In this document: one piece after another, positions 19,085-53,640 of the stretch
Numbering within the stretch: position 1 is the stretch's first letter
Layout: the number at the start of each line of letters is the position of its first letter
DNA from: Eubacteriales bacterium
Lineage (GTDB): Bacteria > Bacillota > Clostridia > Oscillospirales > CAG-272
Reading direction: 5' to 3'
Assembly (NCBI GenBank): GCA_018383975.1
Contig: JAHAZT010000027.1
Coordinates: 1 to 53,841, forward strand
Length of the DNA: 53,841 nucleotides
Notes under the pieces: model-generated
The model's database searches: none
Told to the model about the DNA's origin: nothing
The model's input: the letters and a program-made list of their open reading frames with translations, nothing else
Position numbers and translations under genes: made by a program

Positions 19085-21598
19085 TCAATGAGCTTCATAC
19101 CAGTTCCTGCCCTGCGATATGTCAACCGTCAGCGGCACGGAAAGCGTCGCCGCGTGTTCCATTTCATATTTCAGAATTTCCTCGGCTCTGTCCGCACACG
19201 ACTCCGCCGCTTCGACTATAAGCTCGTCGTGAACCTGCAAAATAAGTCTTGCATCGAGTTTTTCCTCTTTCAGACGTTTATCAACGGCAACCATCGCCAT
19301 TTTGATAATGTCTGCCGCCGCGCCCTGAATAGGACTGTTCATAGCGACTCTTTCTCCGAAGGCTATCTCATTTTTTCTGTGTGATTTCAACTCCGGAATA
19401 TATCTGCGACGACCGAAAAGCGTTGTCACATAGCCGTTCTTTTTTGCTTCTTCAACCACGTCGGAAAGATATTTTCTTATCTTCGGATATGACTGAAGAT
19501 AGCTTTCTATATACTCCGCCGCCTGCCTGCGACTTATATGCAAATCCGTGGCAAGCGAGAATTCGCCCATTCCGTACATTATTCCGAAATTGACGGCTTT
19601 TGCTCTCTTGCGCATTTCAATCGTAACTTCATCCTTTGAAACGCCGAACATTTTCATCGCCGTTGACGAGTGAATGTCAAAACCGGAAAGAAACGCCTCA
19701 CGCATATTTTCGTCGTCCGAAACGGCACAAAGTATGCGCAGCTCTATCTGCGAATAGTCCGCGTCTATAAGCACTCTTCCGTCACGCGTCGGGACGAAAA
19801 ACTTACGGAACTCTCTTCCCAGCTCGGTTTTTATCGGAATGTTCTGAAGATTCGGCTCCGCAGAGGAAAGCCTTCCCGTCGCCGTGACAGCCTGCTTGAA
19901 GCGCGTATGCACTCTGCCGTTTTCGTCGGCAGCTTCTATAAGCCCGTCCGCATAAGTGCTTTTGAGTTTTCCGTCCGCACGGTATTCGAGAATGTAGTCT
20001 ATAATGGGAGAAAACGGTCGGAGCGATTCAAGCACTTCGGCACTTGTCGAATATCCGCTTTTCGTTTTTTTACCGGTCGGCAGGTGCATATCGTCAAAAA
20101 GCACCGCGCCGAGCTGCTTCGGCGAATTTATATTGAATTCCGTTCCCGCAAGCATATAAATCTGTGTTGCGAGTTGTTCCTGTGCTTCGCCGAGTGCCGA
20201 TGAAAACTCTGCGAGCTTTTCCGTATCGACCTTAAACCCCTCGCTCTCCATTTCGTAAAGAACGTTTGCGAGAGGAAACTCCGTCTTTTTATACAGCTTC
20301 ATTTGTCCGGTTTTTTCAAGCTCGGCGGTAAAAACGCCGTAAAGCGAATATATATAATAAGCCTCCGACGCCTTGTCCTTCACTTCCGCGCCAAGATATC
20401 TCGAAACCGCTTTTTCAAGAGAAACATCGCCGACGCCGCCCATACAGAGATAACCCATAAGCATTACGTCATCCTTGCAGGAGGAAAAATCAACGCCGTA
20501 TTTTTCAAGCTGATGACGGGTTTCCTTTACGTCATAGCATACAAGACGCGCCCCGCCGCTGAAAAGACTTTTGTTTTGCGCAATTCCGCTTATGCAAAGC
20601 AATTTCCCTTCATGTGCGAGATATATTTTATCGTTTTCAAAATCTATCGAACAACCGCAGACGACGCTTGCGTCTATATCGTTCGCCGTCGACTCCTCTG
20701 CCTCCGGAACCTCCGGAAGTTTATCTGCACTTGCTGCCTCACCGAGTCCGAAGCGCTTTATAAAACCCGAAAAATCAAGTTTTCGGAACATTTCGTAAAG
20801 CGCGGCACCGTCGATACCTTTGTATTCAACCTCGTCAAGCGACGGCAAAGACGGAACATTTTTATCTATGGTCGCAAGCGTGCGCGAAAGAAATACCGCG
20901 TCCTTGCTCTGCTCAAGCTTCGATTTTACACCGGCGGAGAGTGTGCCCGTCGCATAGATTTCGTACAGACGGTCAATATTTCCATATTCTTCAATCAGCT
21001 TTCCCGCCGTTTTTTCGCCTATTCCCGCCGCGCCGGGAATGTTGTCCGAGCTGTCGCCCATCAGCGCCTTCATATCGACAAACTGCGAAGGGTAGATGCC
21101 GTATTTCGCGCGGAATGCTTCAACGTCATATTTTACGGAGTCTCCCGTCGTTGCAAGCAGAACGGTTGTATTGTCATTTATAAGCTGAAGCGAGTCTTTA
21201 TCCCCCGTGACAATATATGTCATAACGTCGCTTTCCCCGCATATGCGCGAATAAGTGCCGAGAATGTCGTCCGCTTCATAGCCCGAAAGCTCAACGCAAT
21301 GCGCCCCCATTGCACGAAGACACTCCTTTGCGGGAGCGAACTGCGAAAGCAATTCCGGCGGCGTTACGTGCCTGCCCGCCTTGTATTCGGCAAACATTTT
21401 GTGTCGGAACGTCGGCGCATGAACGTCGAAAGCAACGACAAAATAGTCCGGATCAAGCTCCGTTACGTGCTTTGAAATTATATTTATCATTCCGTAAATC
21501 GCGTTTGTCGGCGTACCGTCCCTTGCGGTCAGTCCGCGGACGCCGTAATATGCGCGGTTTATTATGGAGTTTCCGTCAACGCAAAGCATTTTCTTCAT
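19085..21598 (-). CDS. polA: DNA polymerase I
   Basis: 5'-3' exonuclease 'DGNSIINRAYY' and 'EADDILGT'; polymerase motifs 'DADYSQIELR', 'RKRAKAVNFGIMYG', 'QVHDEL'. Confidence 0.98.
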   Translation of the reverse strand: MKKMLCVDGNSIINRAYYGVRGLTARDGTPTNAIYGMINIISKHVTELDPDYFVVAFDVHAPTFRHKMFAEYKAGRHVTPPELLSQFAPAKECLRAMGAHCVELSGYEADDILGTYSRICGESDVMTYIVTGDKDSLQLINDNTTVLLATTGDSVKYDVEAFRAKYGIYPSQFVDMKALMGDSSDNIPGAAGIGEKTAGKLIEEYGNIDRLYEIYATGTLSAGVKSKLEQSKDAVFLSRTLATIDKNVPSLPSLDEVEYKGIDGAALYEMFRKLDFSGFIKRFGLGEAASADKLPEVPEAEESTANDIDASVVCGCSIDFENDKIYLAHEGKLLCISGIAQNKSLFSGGARLVCYDVKETRHQLEKYGVDFSSCKDDVMLMGYLCMGGVGDVSLEKAVSRYLGAEVKDKASEAYYIYSLYGVFTAELEKTGQMKLYKKTEFPLANVLYEMESEGFKVDTEKLAEFSSALGEAQEQLATQIYMLAGTEFNINSPKQLGAVLFDDMHLPTGKKTKSGYSTSAEVLESLRPFSPIIDYILEYRADGKLKSTYADGLIEAADENGRVHTRFKQAVTATGRLSSAEPNLQNIPIKTELGREFRKFFVPTRDGRVLIDADYSQIELRILCAVSDDENMREAFLSGFDIHSSTAMKMFGVSKDEVTIEMRKRAKAVNFGIMYGMGEFSLATDLHISRRQAAEYIESYLQSYPKIRKYLSDVVEEAKKNGYVTTLFGRRRYIPELKSHRKNEIAFGERVAMNSPIQGAAADIIKMAMVAVDKRLKEEKLDARLILQVHDELIVEAAESCADRAEEILKYEMEHAATLSVPLTVDISQGRNWYEAH

Positions 21599-50809: not shown

Positions 50810-50838
50810 TTGACAAGCCCCTTCCTTTGTGATATCAT
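50810..50838 (+). promoter_or_regulatory. sigmaA promoter of the met leader/metQNI operon
   Basis: TTGACA (50810-50815), 17-nt spacer ending TGa, TATCAT (50833-50838). Confidence 0.85.
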
Positions 50839-50871
50839 ACGTCCATATTTATCCGCAGGGAGGAACACGTG

Positions 50872-50973
50872 ATGCTTACAGCGCTTACGCTTAAAGAGAT
50901 GATAATGTGCATGTCTATGATGCAAGCCGAAGATTGCTGTATCATACGTTTCCGCACGCAAAAAAACGTTTGA
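50872..50973 (+). CDS. Met-rich leader peptide, 33 aa: MLTALTLKEMIMCMSMMQAEDCCIIRFRTQKNV
   Basis: GGGAGG RBS (50858-50863) 8 nt before ATG; Met at codons 10, 12, 14, 16, 17; too short for the supplied ORF track. Confidence 0.85.
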   Translation: MLTALTLKEMIMCMSMMQAEDCCIIRFRTQKNV

Positions 50974-51044
50974 TCCCAAAGCGGATAATGTAAAAATAAA
51001 GCAATCTTCGGAAGCCGTTTTTTCAGGCTTCCGTTTTTTGTTTT
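50916..51044 (+). promoter_or_regulatory. Transcription attenuator (protector, antiterminator, terminator)
   Basis: 1:2 helix 50916-50924/50938-50946; 2:3 helix 50927-50938/51000-51011 (12 bp perfect); 3:4 terminator 51009-51016/51026-51033 followed by TTTTTTGTTTT. Confidence 0.82.
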
Positions 51045-51076
51045 CAAAATTATTTTTCTCAAAGGAGATTTCAAAA

Positions 51077-51922
51077 ATGAAAAAAATCGCAGCAATCATC
51101 ATCACGCTCGCAATCACGCTTCTGCTTCTCGCTTCGTGCGGCGGCAAGAAAGGTGTGACCATCGCAGTTCCGAACGATACAACAAACGAAGCCCGCGCGC
51201 TCCTTCTTCTTGAAGCAAACGGACTTATCAAACTCAAGGAAGGCGCAGGAATTACGGCAACAGTTCGTGACATCGTCGAAAATCCTTATAACATCAAAAT
51301 AAAAGAGGTTGAAGCCGCACAGCTTCCCAACTTCCTCCCCGACGTTGACTATGCCGTCATAAATTCAAACTACGCTCTCCCCGCCGGTCTCAATCCGACA
51401 AAGGACTCGCTCGCAATTGAAGGCTCATACAGTAAATACGCAAATATTCTTGCCGTCAAAAAAGGCAACGAAAGCACCCCGAAGACAAAGGCTCTCAAGG
51501 CGGCTCTCGAAAGCAAGCAGGTTGCGGATTTCATTGCAAAAAAATATGACGGCGCCGTCATAAGCACAATTGACAATCCCACAAACGGCTTTGACGCCTC
51601 TGTTGACTATGCTTCCCTTGCCGGAACGAAAATCACAGTCGCCGCTTCGCCCACTCCCCATGCGGAAATTCTTGAAGAAGCAAAGAAAATTCTTGCCGAA
51701 AAGAACATCACGCTTGAAATCAAAACCTTTTCCGATTACGTTGTCCCGAACAACGTTGTCGAAAGCGGCGAATGCGACGCAAACTACTTCCAGCACACCC
51801 CCTACCTTGATAATTTCAACGAAAACAACGGCACGCACATCGTTTCTGTTTCCGCAGTTCACGTTGAGCCTATGGGTGTTTACTCCAAAAGCCATACAAC
51901 GCTTGAAGATATAAAAAAATAA
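51077..51922 (+). CDS. metQ: Methionine ABC transporter substrate-binding lipoprotein (MetQ/NlpA), permuted segment order
   Basis: Lipobox 'LASC'; 'IAVPNDTTNEARALLLL', 'AVINSNYA', 'ASPTPHAEILE', 'DANYFQHTPYL', 'HVEPMGVYS'. Confidence 0.92.
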   Translation: MKKIAAIIITLAITLLLLASCGGKKGVTIAVPNDTTNEARALLLLEANGLIKLKEGAGITATVRDIVENPYNIKIKEVEAAQLPNFLPDVDYAVINSNYALPAGLNPTKDSLAIEGSYSKYANILAVKKGNESTPKTKALKAALESKQVADFIAKKYDGAVISTIDNPTNGFDASVDYASLAGTKITVAASPTPHAEILEEAKKILAEKNITLEIKTFSDYVVPNNVVESGECDANYFQHTPYLDNFNENNGTHIVSVSAVHVEPMGVYSKSHTTLEDIKK

Positions 51923-51940: not shown

Positions 51941-52939
51941 ATGATAGAATTACGCAACATTTGCAAGACCTTTGAAGGCGCGGGCGGAAAAGTCGACGCG
52001 CTTCACAACATAAACCTGACAATATCGGACGGCGATATTTACGGTATTATCGGTATGAGCGGAGCCGGAAAAAGCACTCTTGTTCGCTGTATCAATATGC
52101 TTGAACGCCCGACAGAAGGCGAGGTTATAGTCGACGGAGTGAATATGGGAGAGCTTTCCCCCTCTCAGCTCCGCGAAGCAAGACGCGGCATAACAATGAT
52201 TTTTCAGGGCTTTAATCTGCTTATGCAGAAAAATTGCCTGAAAAACGTCTGTTTCCCGATGGAGCTTGCGGGCATACCGAAGGCGGACGCCGTAAAGCGT
52301 GCGACGGAGCTTCTTGAACTTGTCGGCTTGCCGGACAAGGCAAAAGCCTATCCCGCCCAGCTTTCAGGCGGTCAGCAGCAAAGAGTTGCCATAGCCCGTG
52401 CGCTTGCAACGAATCCGAAAGTGCTTCTCTGCGATGAGGCAACAAGCGCGCTTGACCCGAACACTACCCACTCAATTCTCGAACTGATACGGGACATAAA
52501 TAAAAAACTCGGAATAACCGTCATAATCATCACGCACCAGATGAGCGTTGTCGAAGAGGTCTGCAATCATGTTGCGATTCTCGATAACGGCGAAGTCGTT
52601 GAAGAAGGCGCAGTCGGAACGGTATTCGCAAGTCCGAAATCGGCGGCGGCAAGACGGCTCGTTTTCCCCGGCGGCGCGGACGATCAGGTCTCAAATCCGC
52701 ACAAGGAAAAACGGCTCCGCGTTGTTTTCAGCGGCGCACAGGCGGCGAGTATGCCCCTCATTTCGTCAATGGCGATTGAAATGAACATTCTCGTAAACAT
52801 AGTTTCCGCCGCCACACGATGCATTGACGACAGAACCTACGGATCTATGCTTCTGGGCGTTCCCGGCGGCGAGGAACAGGCAAAGATGGTTGCCGGATAT
52901 CTCGGCTCCGTTGAAAACGTGACAGTTGAGGAGGTGTAA
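51941..52939 (+). CDS. metN: Methionine ABC transporter ATP-binding protein
   Basis: 'GMSGAGKSTLVRCINMLERPT', 'YPAQLSGGQQQRVAIARAL', 'LLCDEATSALDP', C-terminal NIL-like domain. Confidence 0.95.
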   Translation: MIELRNICKTFEGAGGKVDALHNINLTISDGDIYGIIGMSGAGKSTLVRCINMLERPTEGEVIVDGVNMGELSPSQLREARRGITMIFQGFNLLMQKNCLKNVCFPMELAGIPKADAVKRATELLELVGLPDKAKAYPAQLSGGQQQRVAIARALATNPKVLLCDEATSALDPNTTHSILELIRDINKKLGITVIIITHQMSVVEEVCNHVAILDNGEVVEEGAVGTVFASPKSAAARRLVFPGGADDQVSNPHKEKRLRVVFSGAQAASMPLISSMAIEMNILVNIVSAATRCIDDRTYGSMLLGVPGGEEQAKMVAGYLGSVENVTVEEV

Positions 52940-52941
52940 AA

Positions 52942-53640
52942 ATGAATAATATGTTTTCTCCGGAAAAACTGCAAACGGCTGTCGATATATTGAAGCACGA
53001 TATTCCGGCTGCAATTTTTGAAACGCTGTACGTTACGCTCATCGCCACGTTTTTTGCATTTGTTATAGGACTTCCGCTCGGTGTTCTGCTCGTTGTCGGA
53101 GACAAAGGCGGCGTTCTTCCCCTTCCGAAATGGCTTATGAAATTGCTGAACGTCATAGTCAATCTTCTCCGTTCCGTCCCTTTTATAATACTTATTGTCG
53201 TTGTGTTCCCTCTCACGAGGCTTATCGTCGGCACAACGATAGGCTCGGTAGCGTCGATTGTACCTCTTGTCATAGCGGCGTTTCCGTTTGTCGCAAGACT
53301 TGTTGAAAGCAGTCTGCGCGAAGTCAATCCCAACATAATCGAAGCGGCGCAGAGTATGGGCGCAACACCGTTTCAGATAATCACAAAGGTAATGATTCCC
53401 GAAAGCGTTCCGTCACTTGTTTCAAACGCCACGATAGCCGTAACCACAATTCTAGGTTACACGGCAATGAGCGGTGCAATCGGCGGCGGCGGACTCGGAA
53501 ATATCGCCATTATGTACGGTTATATGCGTTATAACTATATGGTAATACTGATTGCCGTTGTGCTTCTTATCGTGCTTGTTCAGGTATTCCAGAGCGCAGG
53601 CACCGCAATTTCCGTAAAGACGGACAAAAGACTGAAATAA
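52942..53640 (+). CDS. metI: Methionine ABC transporter permease
   Basis: 'NLLRSVPFIIL', 'IVGTTIG', 'ARLVESSL', 'EAAQSMGA', 'GAIGGGGLG'. Confidence 0.95.
   Translation: MNNMFSPEKLQTAVDILKHDIPAAIFETLYVTLIATFFAFVIGLPLGVLLVVGDKGGVLPLPKWLMKLLNVIVNLLRSVPFIILIVVVFPLTRLIVGTTIGSVASIVPLVIAAFPFVARLVESSLREVNPNIIEAAQSMGATPFQIITKVMIPESVPSLVSNATIAVTTILGYTAMSGAIGGGGLGNIAIMYGYMRYNYMVILIAVVLLIVLVQVFQSAGTAISVKTDKRLK

Follow-up and report, generated by a model that had tools for sequence, protein, structure and literature searches.

The stretch of DNA analysed here, called the window, comprises 53,841 nucleotides (nt) of contig JAHAZT010000027.1 (assembly GCA_018383975.1) from an Eubacteriales bacterium of the order Oscillospirales. 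It carries the genes metQ, metN, and metI of a methionine ATP-binding cassette (ABC) importer, preceded by a leader in which a promoter, a Shine-Dalgarno (SD) site, a short open reading frame (ORF) crowded with Met codons, three RNA helices, and a predicted terminator follow one another (Table 1). An earlier note on this DNA, made from its letters alone, had proposed that the leader is a Met-sensing attenuator. The elements of the sequence, their conservation, and the covariation of the antiterminator are directly seen, and they make it quite probable that the leader is a ribosome-mediated transcription attenuator of metQNI, which would respond to the supply of Met and perhaps also of Cys.

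The promoter agrees with the consensus at 11 of 12 positions and has the TG extension in addition. Promoter-like sites number three in 1.8 kb, where 2.1 are expected from shuffles, and the match taken alone is weak and proves little. Both hexamers are kept in all seven genus genomes with the leader, except for one base of the -10 element, and the sequence around them varies. Transcription is predicted to start near 50845. An ORF listing begins the leader ORF at GTG 50869; this GTG is lost in three genomes of the genus and the ATG stays. Besides the Cys codon embedded in the Met run, the ORF has Cys at codons 22 and 23. The window's own genome (G000; assembly of 1.48 Mb, 92.6% complete) holds, in all six frames, 12 stretches of eight in-frame codons with at least four ATG. 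A combined filter that demanded an SD site, no more than 50 codons, a single-amino-acid run, and a terminator no farther than 90 nt away returned five ORFs, and the leader before metQ was the sole Met-type ORF among them.

The three helices compete for the same RNA. The 5' strand of hairpin 1:2 consists of Met codons 16 and 17, and its loop and 3' strand hold the 5' arm of the antiterminator. The antiterminator 2:3 has 12 perfect pairs (50927-38/51000-11) and extends to 16 nt at 94% complementarity (50927-42/50996-51011). Its duplex energy of -19.6 to -21.3 kcal/mol was reached by none of 200 and none of 300 shuffles, and it shares three bases with the terminator. A simple terminator scan missed the latter, which has a 9-nt loop, because the scan allows loops of 8 nt at most. 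As a whole, the leader folds better than each of 200 shuffles (z = -4.2). The promoter, ribosome-binding site, 33-codon ORF with five Met in eight codons, and three helices with three shared bases had all been listed in the earlier note, and all were recovered with their coordinates unchanged. The exclusion of SAM and T-box models that it had suggested was carried out with cmscan. Between 49500 and 52500 neither the S-adenosylmethionine (SAM) riboswitch SAM-I (RF00162) nor the T-box (RF00230) nor any other Rfam family gave a match up to E = 10. This empty result is not a failure of the tool, since the same library finds SAM-I and five T-box matches elsewhere in the genome.

Contigs from RNA libraries of four metatranscriptome studies cover the leader, although such contigs cannot show translation, transcript starts, ends or levels, and may contain DNA. 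In two of the four runs they bridge the terminator into metQ (X1, 50926-51350; X5, 50898-51090), and this shows that joined molecules exist, not that they are regulated. A fall in contig depth after 50958 in one RNA run is unusable as evidence.

Table 1. Positions of the leader elements and of the metQNI genes in the window
Feature	Position	Strand	Remarks
SigA/sigma-70-type promoter	50810-50838	+	-35 at 50810-15, 17-nt spacer, -10 at 50833-38, TG extension (50830-38)
SD site of leader ORF	50858-50863	+	8 nt before ATG 50872; invariant in 7/7 genus genomes
Leader ORF	50872-50973	+	33 codons and TGA (50971-73); five internal Met, three Cys
Sensing run (putative)	50899-50922	+	Met codons 10, 12, 14, 16, 17 with Cys codon 13; five Met in eight codons
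Hairpin 1:2	50916-24/50938-46	+	9 nt, 89% complementary; local fold -10.8 kcal/mol
Antiterminator 5' arm (segment 2)	50927-50942	+	Inside leader codons 19-24
Segment 3	50996-51016	+	50996-51011 pair with segment 2; 51009-51016 form the terminator 5' arm
Terminator (predicted)	51009-16/51026-33 and T-run 51034-44	+	-13.7 to -14.4 kcal/mol
metQ	51077-51922	+	Substrate-binding lipoprotein of methionine ABC importer; own SD site 51062-67
metN	51941-52939	+	ATP-binding subunit; TIGR02314 E = 3.4e-106, below equivalog cut-off
metI	52942-53640	+	Permease subunit; NF008049 218.6 bits, cut-off 212

Conservation of the leader within and beyond the genus

In a DNA search of 60 relatives, six genomes of the genus besides the window's own had the complete leader (87-96% identity); beyond the genus the search gave only short matches at chance level. 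The leader is thus present in seven of seven genus genomes that carry an orthologous MetQ (86-100% identity). It was not found in the other four of the 11 genus genomes, three of which have no MetQ match at E 1e-20 and one of which has only a relative of 36% identity. The reading frame and the position of the stop are kept in all seven genomes, with TGA replaced by TAA in two, and the penultimate codon takes four forms. A block of 58 nt (50899-50956), which opens with the run's first Met codon and reaches codon 29, is invariant among these genomes (MetQ proteins 86-91% identical), and both of its flanks vary. Because no synonymous change occurs across this block, the RNA appears to be constrained as well as the codons. 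A six-frame search of 301 family genomes with the 33-residue peptide gave real matches solely in the genus (five genomes); 25 weak matches were inspected and set aside, being neither Met-rich nor adjacent to metQ. A metagenome scan with an 18-base pattern of the Met run returned at least 118 stretches, of which 80 made loci; 44 of these loci had the motif in an open frame shorter than 70 codons. Among the matches listed there was one leader (L163), nearly identical to the form of the genus.

Since the leader peptide has no relatives outside the genus, related leaders were sought by way of the transporter. Upstream of each of the MetQ orthologs found at 68% identity in another genus (G024) and in another family (G040) stand a promoter, an SD site, a short ORF rich in Met and Cys codons, and a terminator, with peptides unrelated to that of the window. 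A scan of one genome per species gave 21 loci of the Clostridia type, and 12 of the 19 with 600 nt of upstream sequence have an ORF with at least four Met in ten codons. An evenly drawn sample of 400 genomes of the order was then covered at an ortholog threshold of E at most 1e-70. MetQ orthologs were found in 31 of 401 genomes, spread over seven families, and a short upstream ORF of the same kind preceded 21 of 27 new loci; the same scan scored 0/27 on the reverse complements and 1/5000 on random 600-nt stretches of G000. The Met codons of orthologous leaders, on whose conservation the earlier note had staked its proposal, were therefore kept in most of these loci while the peptides otherwise diverge. 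In all 23 leaders of the order-wide set an intrinsic terminator is predicted 13-53 nt downstream of the stop, and in all 15 leaders of the earlier set one is predicted at 15-35 nt. No Rfam family matched any of 16 related loci at gathering score.

The composition of these ORFs sets them apart. In 29 non-redundant leaders with 945 residues, Met makes up 20.2% and Cys 9.0%, compared with 2.2% and 2.1% in the long ORFs of G000. None of the 29 is without Cys, 26 have it at least twice, and Met-Cys-Met or Cys-Met-Cys occurs in 23. Apart from this, the peptides differ in sequence and in length from lineage to lineage, so that what the loci share is clearly a codon content and a terminator, not a protein. 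Given the co-enrichment of Cys, the switch may read both sulfur amino acids. In this respect the earlier proposal stands as far as the enrichment of Met codons is concerned, but its signal may have to be widened from Met to Met plus Cys. In several loci (L076, L086-L088, L101, L105), the sensing run itself contains a strong local hairpin, in which two nearby Met-Cys-Met codon triplets pair with each other, G-U pairs included. To judge from such modelled folds, the Cys codons may act structurally, be it in addition to sensing or in its place.

The antiterminator can be followed in the closer part of this group. Four more distant relatives of the window leader (L091, G694, G709, G710) all stand before metQ and have the same terminator arms; L091 keeps all five Met codons and the Cys codon among differing flanking residues. 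In an alignment of six divergent leaders, namely that of the window and five others in which the three-helix layout survives, 82.6% of the antiterminator cells are paired, compared with 22-48% when the partner is slid, and four pairs are changed on both sides, giving a covariation score reached by none of 500 shuffles. Along its 5' arm in codons 19-24, the encoded residues change and the pairing is kept. For hairpin 1:2 the paired cells amount to 81.5% (15-57% when slid), and a single pair has changes on both sides. In all six leaders its loop holds the 5' arm of the antiterminator and its 5' strand consists of the last two Met codons. The terminator arms are invariant. An initial covariation count on five genus rows and L091, which had found one pair changed on both sides and was matched by 90 of 500 shuffles, is superseded by this alignment. 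In L091 by itself the strength of the antiterminator was reached by one of 200 and three of 300 shuffles.

The proposed switch and competing explanations

The leader combines the features by which attenuators are recognised, namely a short ORF preceded by an SD site, enrichment in cognate codons, conservation of these codons, a predicted terminator, and an antiterminator that excludes this terminator and has its 5' arm just 3' of the regulatory codons. From the sequence we infer that the leader ORF is translated, that ribosomes stall on it, that this is timed to transcription, and that termination itself takes place. RNA synthesis would begin near 50845, and a ribosome would load on the leader ORF while it proceeds. 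A shortage of charged elongator Met-tRNA (or Cys-tRNA) would make the ribosome stall with codons 10-14 in its A site, and its footprint would cover the 5' strand of hairpin 1:2 and leave 50927-42 free. Segment 2 could then pair with 50996-51011 as soon as this region is made, taking away three bases and the approach of the terminator 5' arm, and RNA polymerase would read on into metQNI. If Met and Cys are plentiful, the ribosome would not stall; it would cover segment 2 while moving over codons 15-29, or else hairpin 1:2 or a larger closed fold would re-form behind it. The terminator (51009-33) with its U-run would then form, and transcription would stop near 51040.

Folding with a ribosome footprint bears on the first half of this scheme. 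A mask of 30 nt was placed on the RNA as it stands before synthesis of the 3' arm of the terminator. The best fold is the antiterminator when Met10, Met12, or Met14 occupies the A site, but with Met16 or Met17 there, the footprint enters segment 2 and the antiterminator is lost. According to these folds, a ribosome stalled early in the Met run would open hairpin 1:2 and free segment 2, just as the earlier note had supposed for Met10-Met14.

Its further statement, by which the terminator forms upon full translation, cannot be derived from the energies alone, and several observations weigh against the attenuator as proposed. Before segment 3 exists, the closed fold has -42.0 kcal/mol; in RNA reaching to 51016, the antiterminator fold (-46.7) beats it even without a ribosome. 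A ribosome at the stop codon leaves segment 2 uncovered, and the antiterminator is then still the best fold, the stop lying about 30 nt beyond segment 2, unlike in the trp layout. When transcription has completed the terminator, the terminated fold is ahead by 12 kcal/mol (-61.5 versus -49.3). As the folding energies alone do not yield the OFF state, termination under plenty must rest on kinetics. In the Firmicutes studied so far, RNA polymerase is reported to outrun the ribosome (PMC13323073), which would make it harder for such switches to work. The comparative data are uneven as well. Six of the 27 orthologs lack the Met-rich ORF, two of them with a weaker Cys-Met-Cys-Met form and four with none. 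The two survey sets have genomes in common, and related leaders do not count as independent, so that the counts overstate the number of separate events. The antiterminator is weak in three of the five other aligned leaders, where 32, 38, and 83 of 300 shuffles reach the duplex, and a significant one was found in none of ten leaders outside the window's group. In the order-wide set at most five of 200 shuffles reached the antiterminator energy in only four of 23 leaders, and the other 19 are not significant. Covarying helices in relatives, proposed earlier as a check, are found for the antiterminator of the six aligned leaders. Sequestration of the SD site by the 3' part of the ORF was considered as a general feature and rejected, because it occurs in 19 of 35 leaders against 37% of shuffles, which is not significant; in the window this pairing was matched in 27 of 100 shuffles.

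Other explanations start from the same leader. A nascent peptide rich in Met and Cys, possibly together with free methionine or SAM, might arrest the ribosome, so that tRNA charging would not be the signal. Arrest-type control may exist in this operon family, since many related leaders and Streptomyces have a second short ORF with a conserved peptide (Arg-Met-stop or Arg-Met-Cys), and the Met-Cys-Met or Cys-Met-Cys motif of 23 of the 29 first ORFs would suit it, too. However, the window leader has no second ORF, with only 32 nt between T-run and metQ, and peptides of the first ORF are not conserved apart from their Met and Cys content, whereas known arrest peptides depend on specific residues. 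In addition, if abundant Met caused the arrest, the importer would have to be turned off by it, whereas stalling in the Met run sets the antiterminator free. An arrest peptide is therefore an unlikely account of the window leader.

The pronounced structure of the leader, its 58 invariant nt that include synonymous sites, and the near self-complementarity of Met-Cys-Met RNA, which gives local hairpins in many leaders, would also suit a switch that works without translation. This could be a riboswitch of unknown type, or the target of an RNA-binding protein recognising repeated AUG or AUGUGC, with the ORF being incidental. Against this, the ATG triplets of 28 non-redundant leader ORFs lie in one frame (184 versus 11 and 7 in the other frames), an SD-like tetramer is in place before 26 of them, with the frame open from ATG to stop, and in the genus the stop keeps its position even where the stop codon has changed. 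Sequence outside the Met and Cys codons and predicted folds differ among lineages, and, as described above, Rfam gave no match in the window or in the related loci. A purely RNA-based switch is accordingly quite improbable. Very improbable, finally, is an independent small gene that merely adjoins metQNI. In other proteins, motifs rich in Met and Cys serve as binding sites for soft metals, so that a metal-binding peptide, for example, is conceivable, and the ORF does have a promoter, an SD site, and a terminator of its own. But leader peptides are conserved neither in sequence nor in length and match no Pfam or NCBIfam family, and the exact peptide of the window is absent from a collection of 15 billion proteins. 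Nor would a small gene account for the association with one transporter subfamily across at least seven families of the order, for an antiterminator that overlaps the terminator and covaries, or for the fact that a promoter scan found no separate metQ promoter between 51044 and 51077.

The attenuator reading can be extended, with considerable doubt, to a dual sensor of Met-tRNA and Cys-tRNA charging that founds an order-wide family in gut Clostridia, with doubly used codons and two-tier control. If this were true, ribosomes in these bacteria would follow RNA polymerase closely enough to steer termination; alternatively, the position of segment 2 deep inside the ORF could be an adaptation to lagging ribosomes. 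The interleaved Met-Cys-Met codons would serve as the sensor and, because their RNA is nearly self-complementary, would also belong to the switch itself. The second ORF with Arg-Met-Cys, shared with Streptomyces, would in many relatives add a second tier of importer control across phyla. Quite apart from this extension, the order consists of gut Clostridia most of which are uncultured, and in at least seven of its families one subfamily of metQNI is preceded by a Met/Cys-codon leader with a terminator. If functional, this leader would provide a simple annotation rule for these importers, and gut anaerobes would have in it a natural means of sensing when Met and Cys run short. It would also allow ribosome-guided termination to be tested in the phylum for which an outrunning polymerase has been reported (PMC13323073).

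Transporter operon and genome setting

NCBIfam assigns the three genes downstream of the leader to MetQ, MetN, and MetI, with only MetI passing the curated cut-off. The metQ product, in whose translation a lipoprotein signal peptide can be read, is matched by MetQ/NlpA families at E = 2e-52, below the curated cut-off and in two stretches. Residues 24-162 align with the C-terminal half of the MetQ/NlpA profile. In canonical relatives (L077, L079, L081), the stretch that matches the C-terminus of the window MetQ comes first, and Streptomyces relatives keep the order of the window. The window MetQ thus looks circularly permuted relative to canonical MetQ. The T-run ends 32 nt before metQ, and as no separate metQ promoter was found in this spacer, the expression of metQNI must cross the terminator. 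On the other side of the leader, no terminator is predicted between the end of the upstream gene for a YfcE-type phosphodiesterase (50773) and the leader promoter. One RNA-library contig spans 50673-50865, from this gene into the leader. Read-through from upstream may add to transcription of the leader.

Three family searches of G000, for metH, metE, and O-acetylhomoserine sulfhydrylase, gave no match in the 92.6%-complete assembly. The organism is possibly a methionine auxotroph, with uptake as the sole source of methionine. The single SAM-I riboswitch of the genome (contig C84, 10287-10371, minus strand) precedes metK, which codes for SAM synthetase; given this position, SAM and Met supply would be sensed by different devices. 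The five T-box matches all lie on contigs other than that of the window. On contig C40 (around 20844-20915, plus strand), a promoter and an SD site are followed by a 23-codon ORF with six Tyr codons, four of them consecutive, then by a terminator and a gene for a class I/II aminotransferase. This ORF is a candidate tyrosine leader-peptide attenuator, which suggests that the lineage uses such control more than once.

Comparison with known systems

Descriptions of Met gene control in Firmicutes deal almost exclusively with SAM-I (S-box) riboswitches and Met T-boxes. These carry out the same task with the same terminator/antiterminator output, but there the RNA directly senses SAM or uncharged tRNA, and neither type was found at the window leader. 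Leader peptides, in contrast, are described as rare outside Proteobacteria and Actinobacteria, the His leader of bacilli being presented as a first Firmicute case (PMC2965389), and a Leu-rich attenuator peptide has been reported from Staphylococcus aureus (PMC5794164). As far as these reports describe them, both share phylum and attenuation with the window leader but concern other amino acids and biosynthetic or tRNA-synthetase-like genes (PMC2965389, PMC5794164).

Outside the Firmicutes, Met-codon leaders before Met importers have already been in print. In Streptomyces lividans TK24, a metL leader ORF upstream of metNIQ is annotated as a Met attenuator (PMC8079986). Like the leader described here, it is a short ORF with Met and Cys codons before a methionine ABC importer (PMC8079986). 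The MetQ proteins are related as well, those of Streptomyces loci and that of the window being 44-64% identical in the best segment. Unlike it, metL is leaderless, has few Met codons, and, in its authors' account, has no typical intrinsic terminator (PMC8079986). In all five Streptomyces loci (L308-L312), the short ORF upstream of metN, which is of the published metL type, has a conserved Arg-Met-Cys stretch with an 8-nt string. Long Clostridial leaders have this string as well, in a second short ORF between the leader terminator and metQ, which ends in Arg-Met-stop or runs through Arg-Met-Cys and is conserved as a peptide. This ORF is found in L075, L076 (1370-1432, from G040), L093, L101, L105, L283, L290-L292, L297, and L305; it stands alone in L284, L287, and L288, and variants occur in L092, L094, and L100. 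Its product may be a peptide that arrests the ribosome, or the ORF may serve as a second module for sensing. In the window, no Arg-Met-Cys or Arg-Met-stop ORF with the string is present at 50845-51076, where the spacer between terminator and metQ is too short for it. The metL of Streptomyces is thus probably a different module from the window leader.

In Campylobacter jejuni, MetL and CJsORF19 are small ORFs enriched in Met codons with support from ribosome profiling and translation-start data (PMC11955535). One such ORF lies upstream of Cj0772c, which encodes a MetQ-type binding protein, and is proposed to be a leader peptide (PMC11955535). Compared with the window leader, they are much shorter (six residues in CJsORF19) and belong to a different phylum, and the report as available describes no terminator or antiterminator for them, their function being a proposal (PMC11955535). 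Mycobacteria have polycysteine, leaderless short ORFs that act as Cys-responsive attenuators of downstream genes (bioRxiv 10.1101/834739); these contain Cys only, according to that report, whereas in the window leader Met dominates and an intrinsic terminator is predicted. For Clostridia, no report of a Met leader was found in the full-text literature, a search whose scope did not extend to supplements and most subscription journals. The novelty that the earlier note had cautiously suggested for Clostridia would therefore not extend to Met-codon leaders before Met importers in general, given the cases in S. lividans and C. jejuni.

The closest model in terms of mechanism is provided by the trp, his, leu, thr, and phe attenuators of Proteobacteria. 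They likewise consist of an SD-preceded ORF with cognate codons, mutually exclusive helices 1:2, 2:3, and 3:4, and an intrinsic terminator before the first structural gene. In contrast to these, the window leader has a clostridial host, no sequence relation to them, and no match to an Rfam leader family. Its segment 2 is part of the ORF and is separated from the stop by about 30 nt, so that a ribosome at the stop leaves it uncovered. The idea of a Met leader is not new in kind, and the textbook mechanism is unchanged; what distinguishes the window leader from the trp/his type is that it would control an importer instead of a biosynthetic operon and would read Met together with Cys codons.

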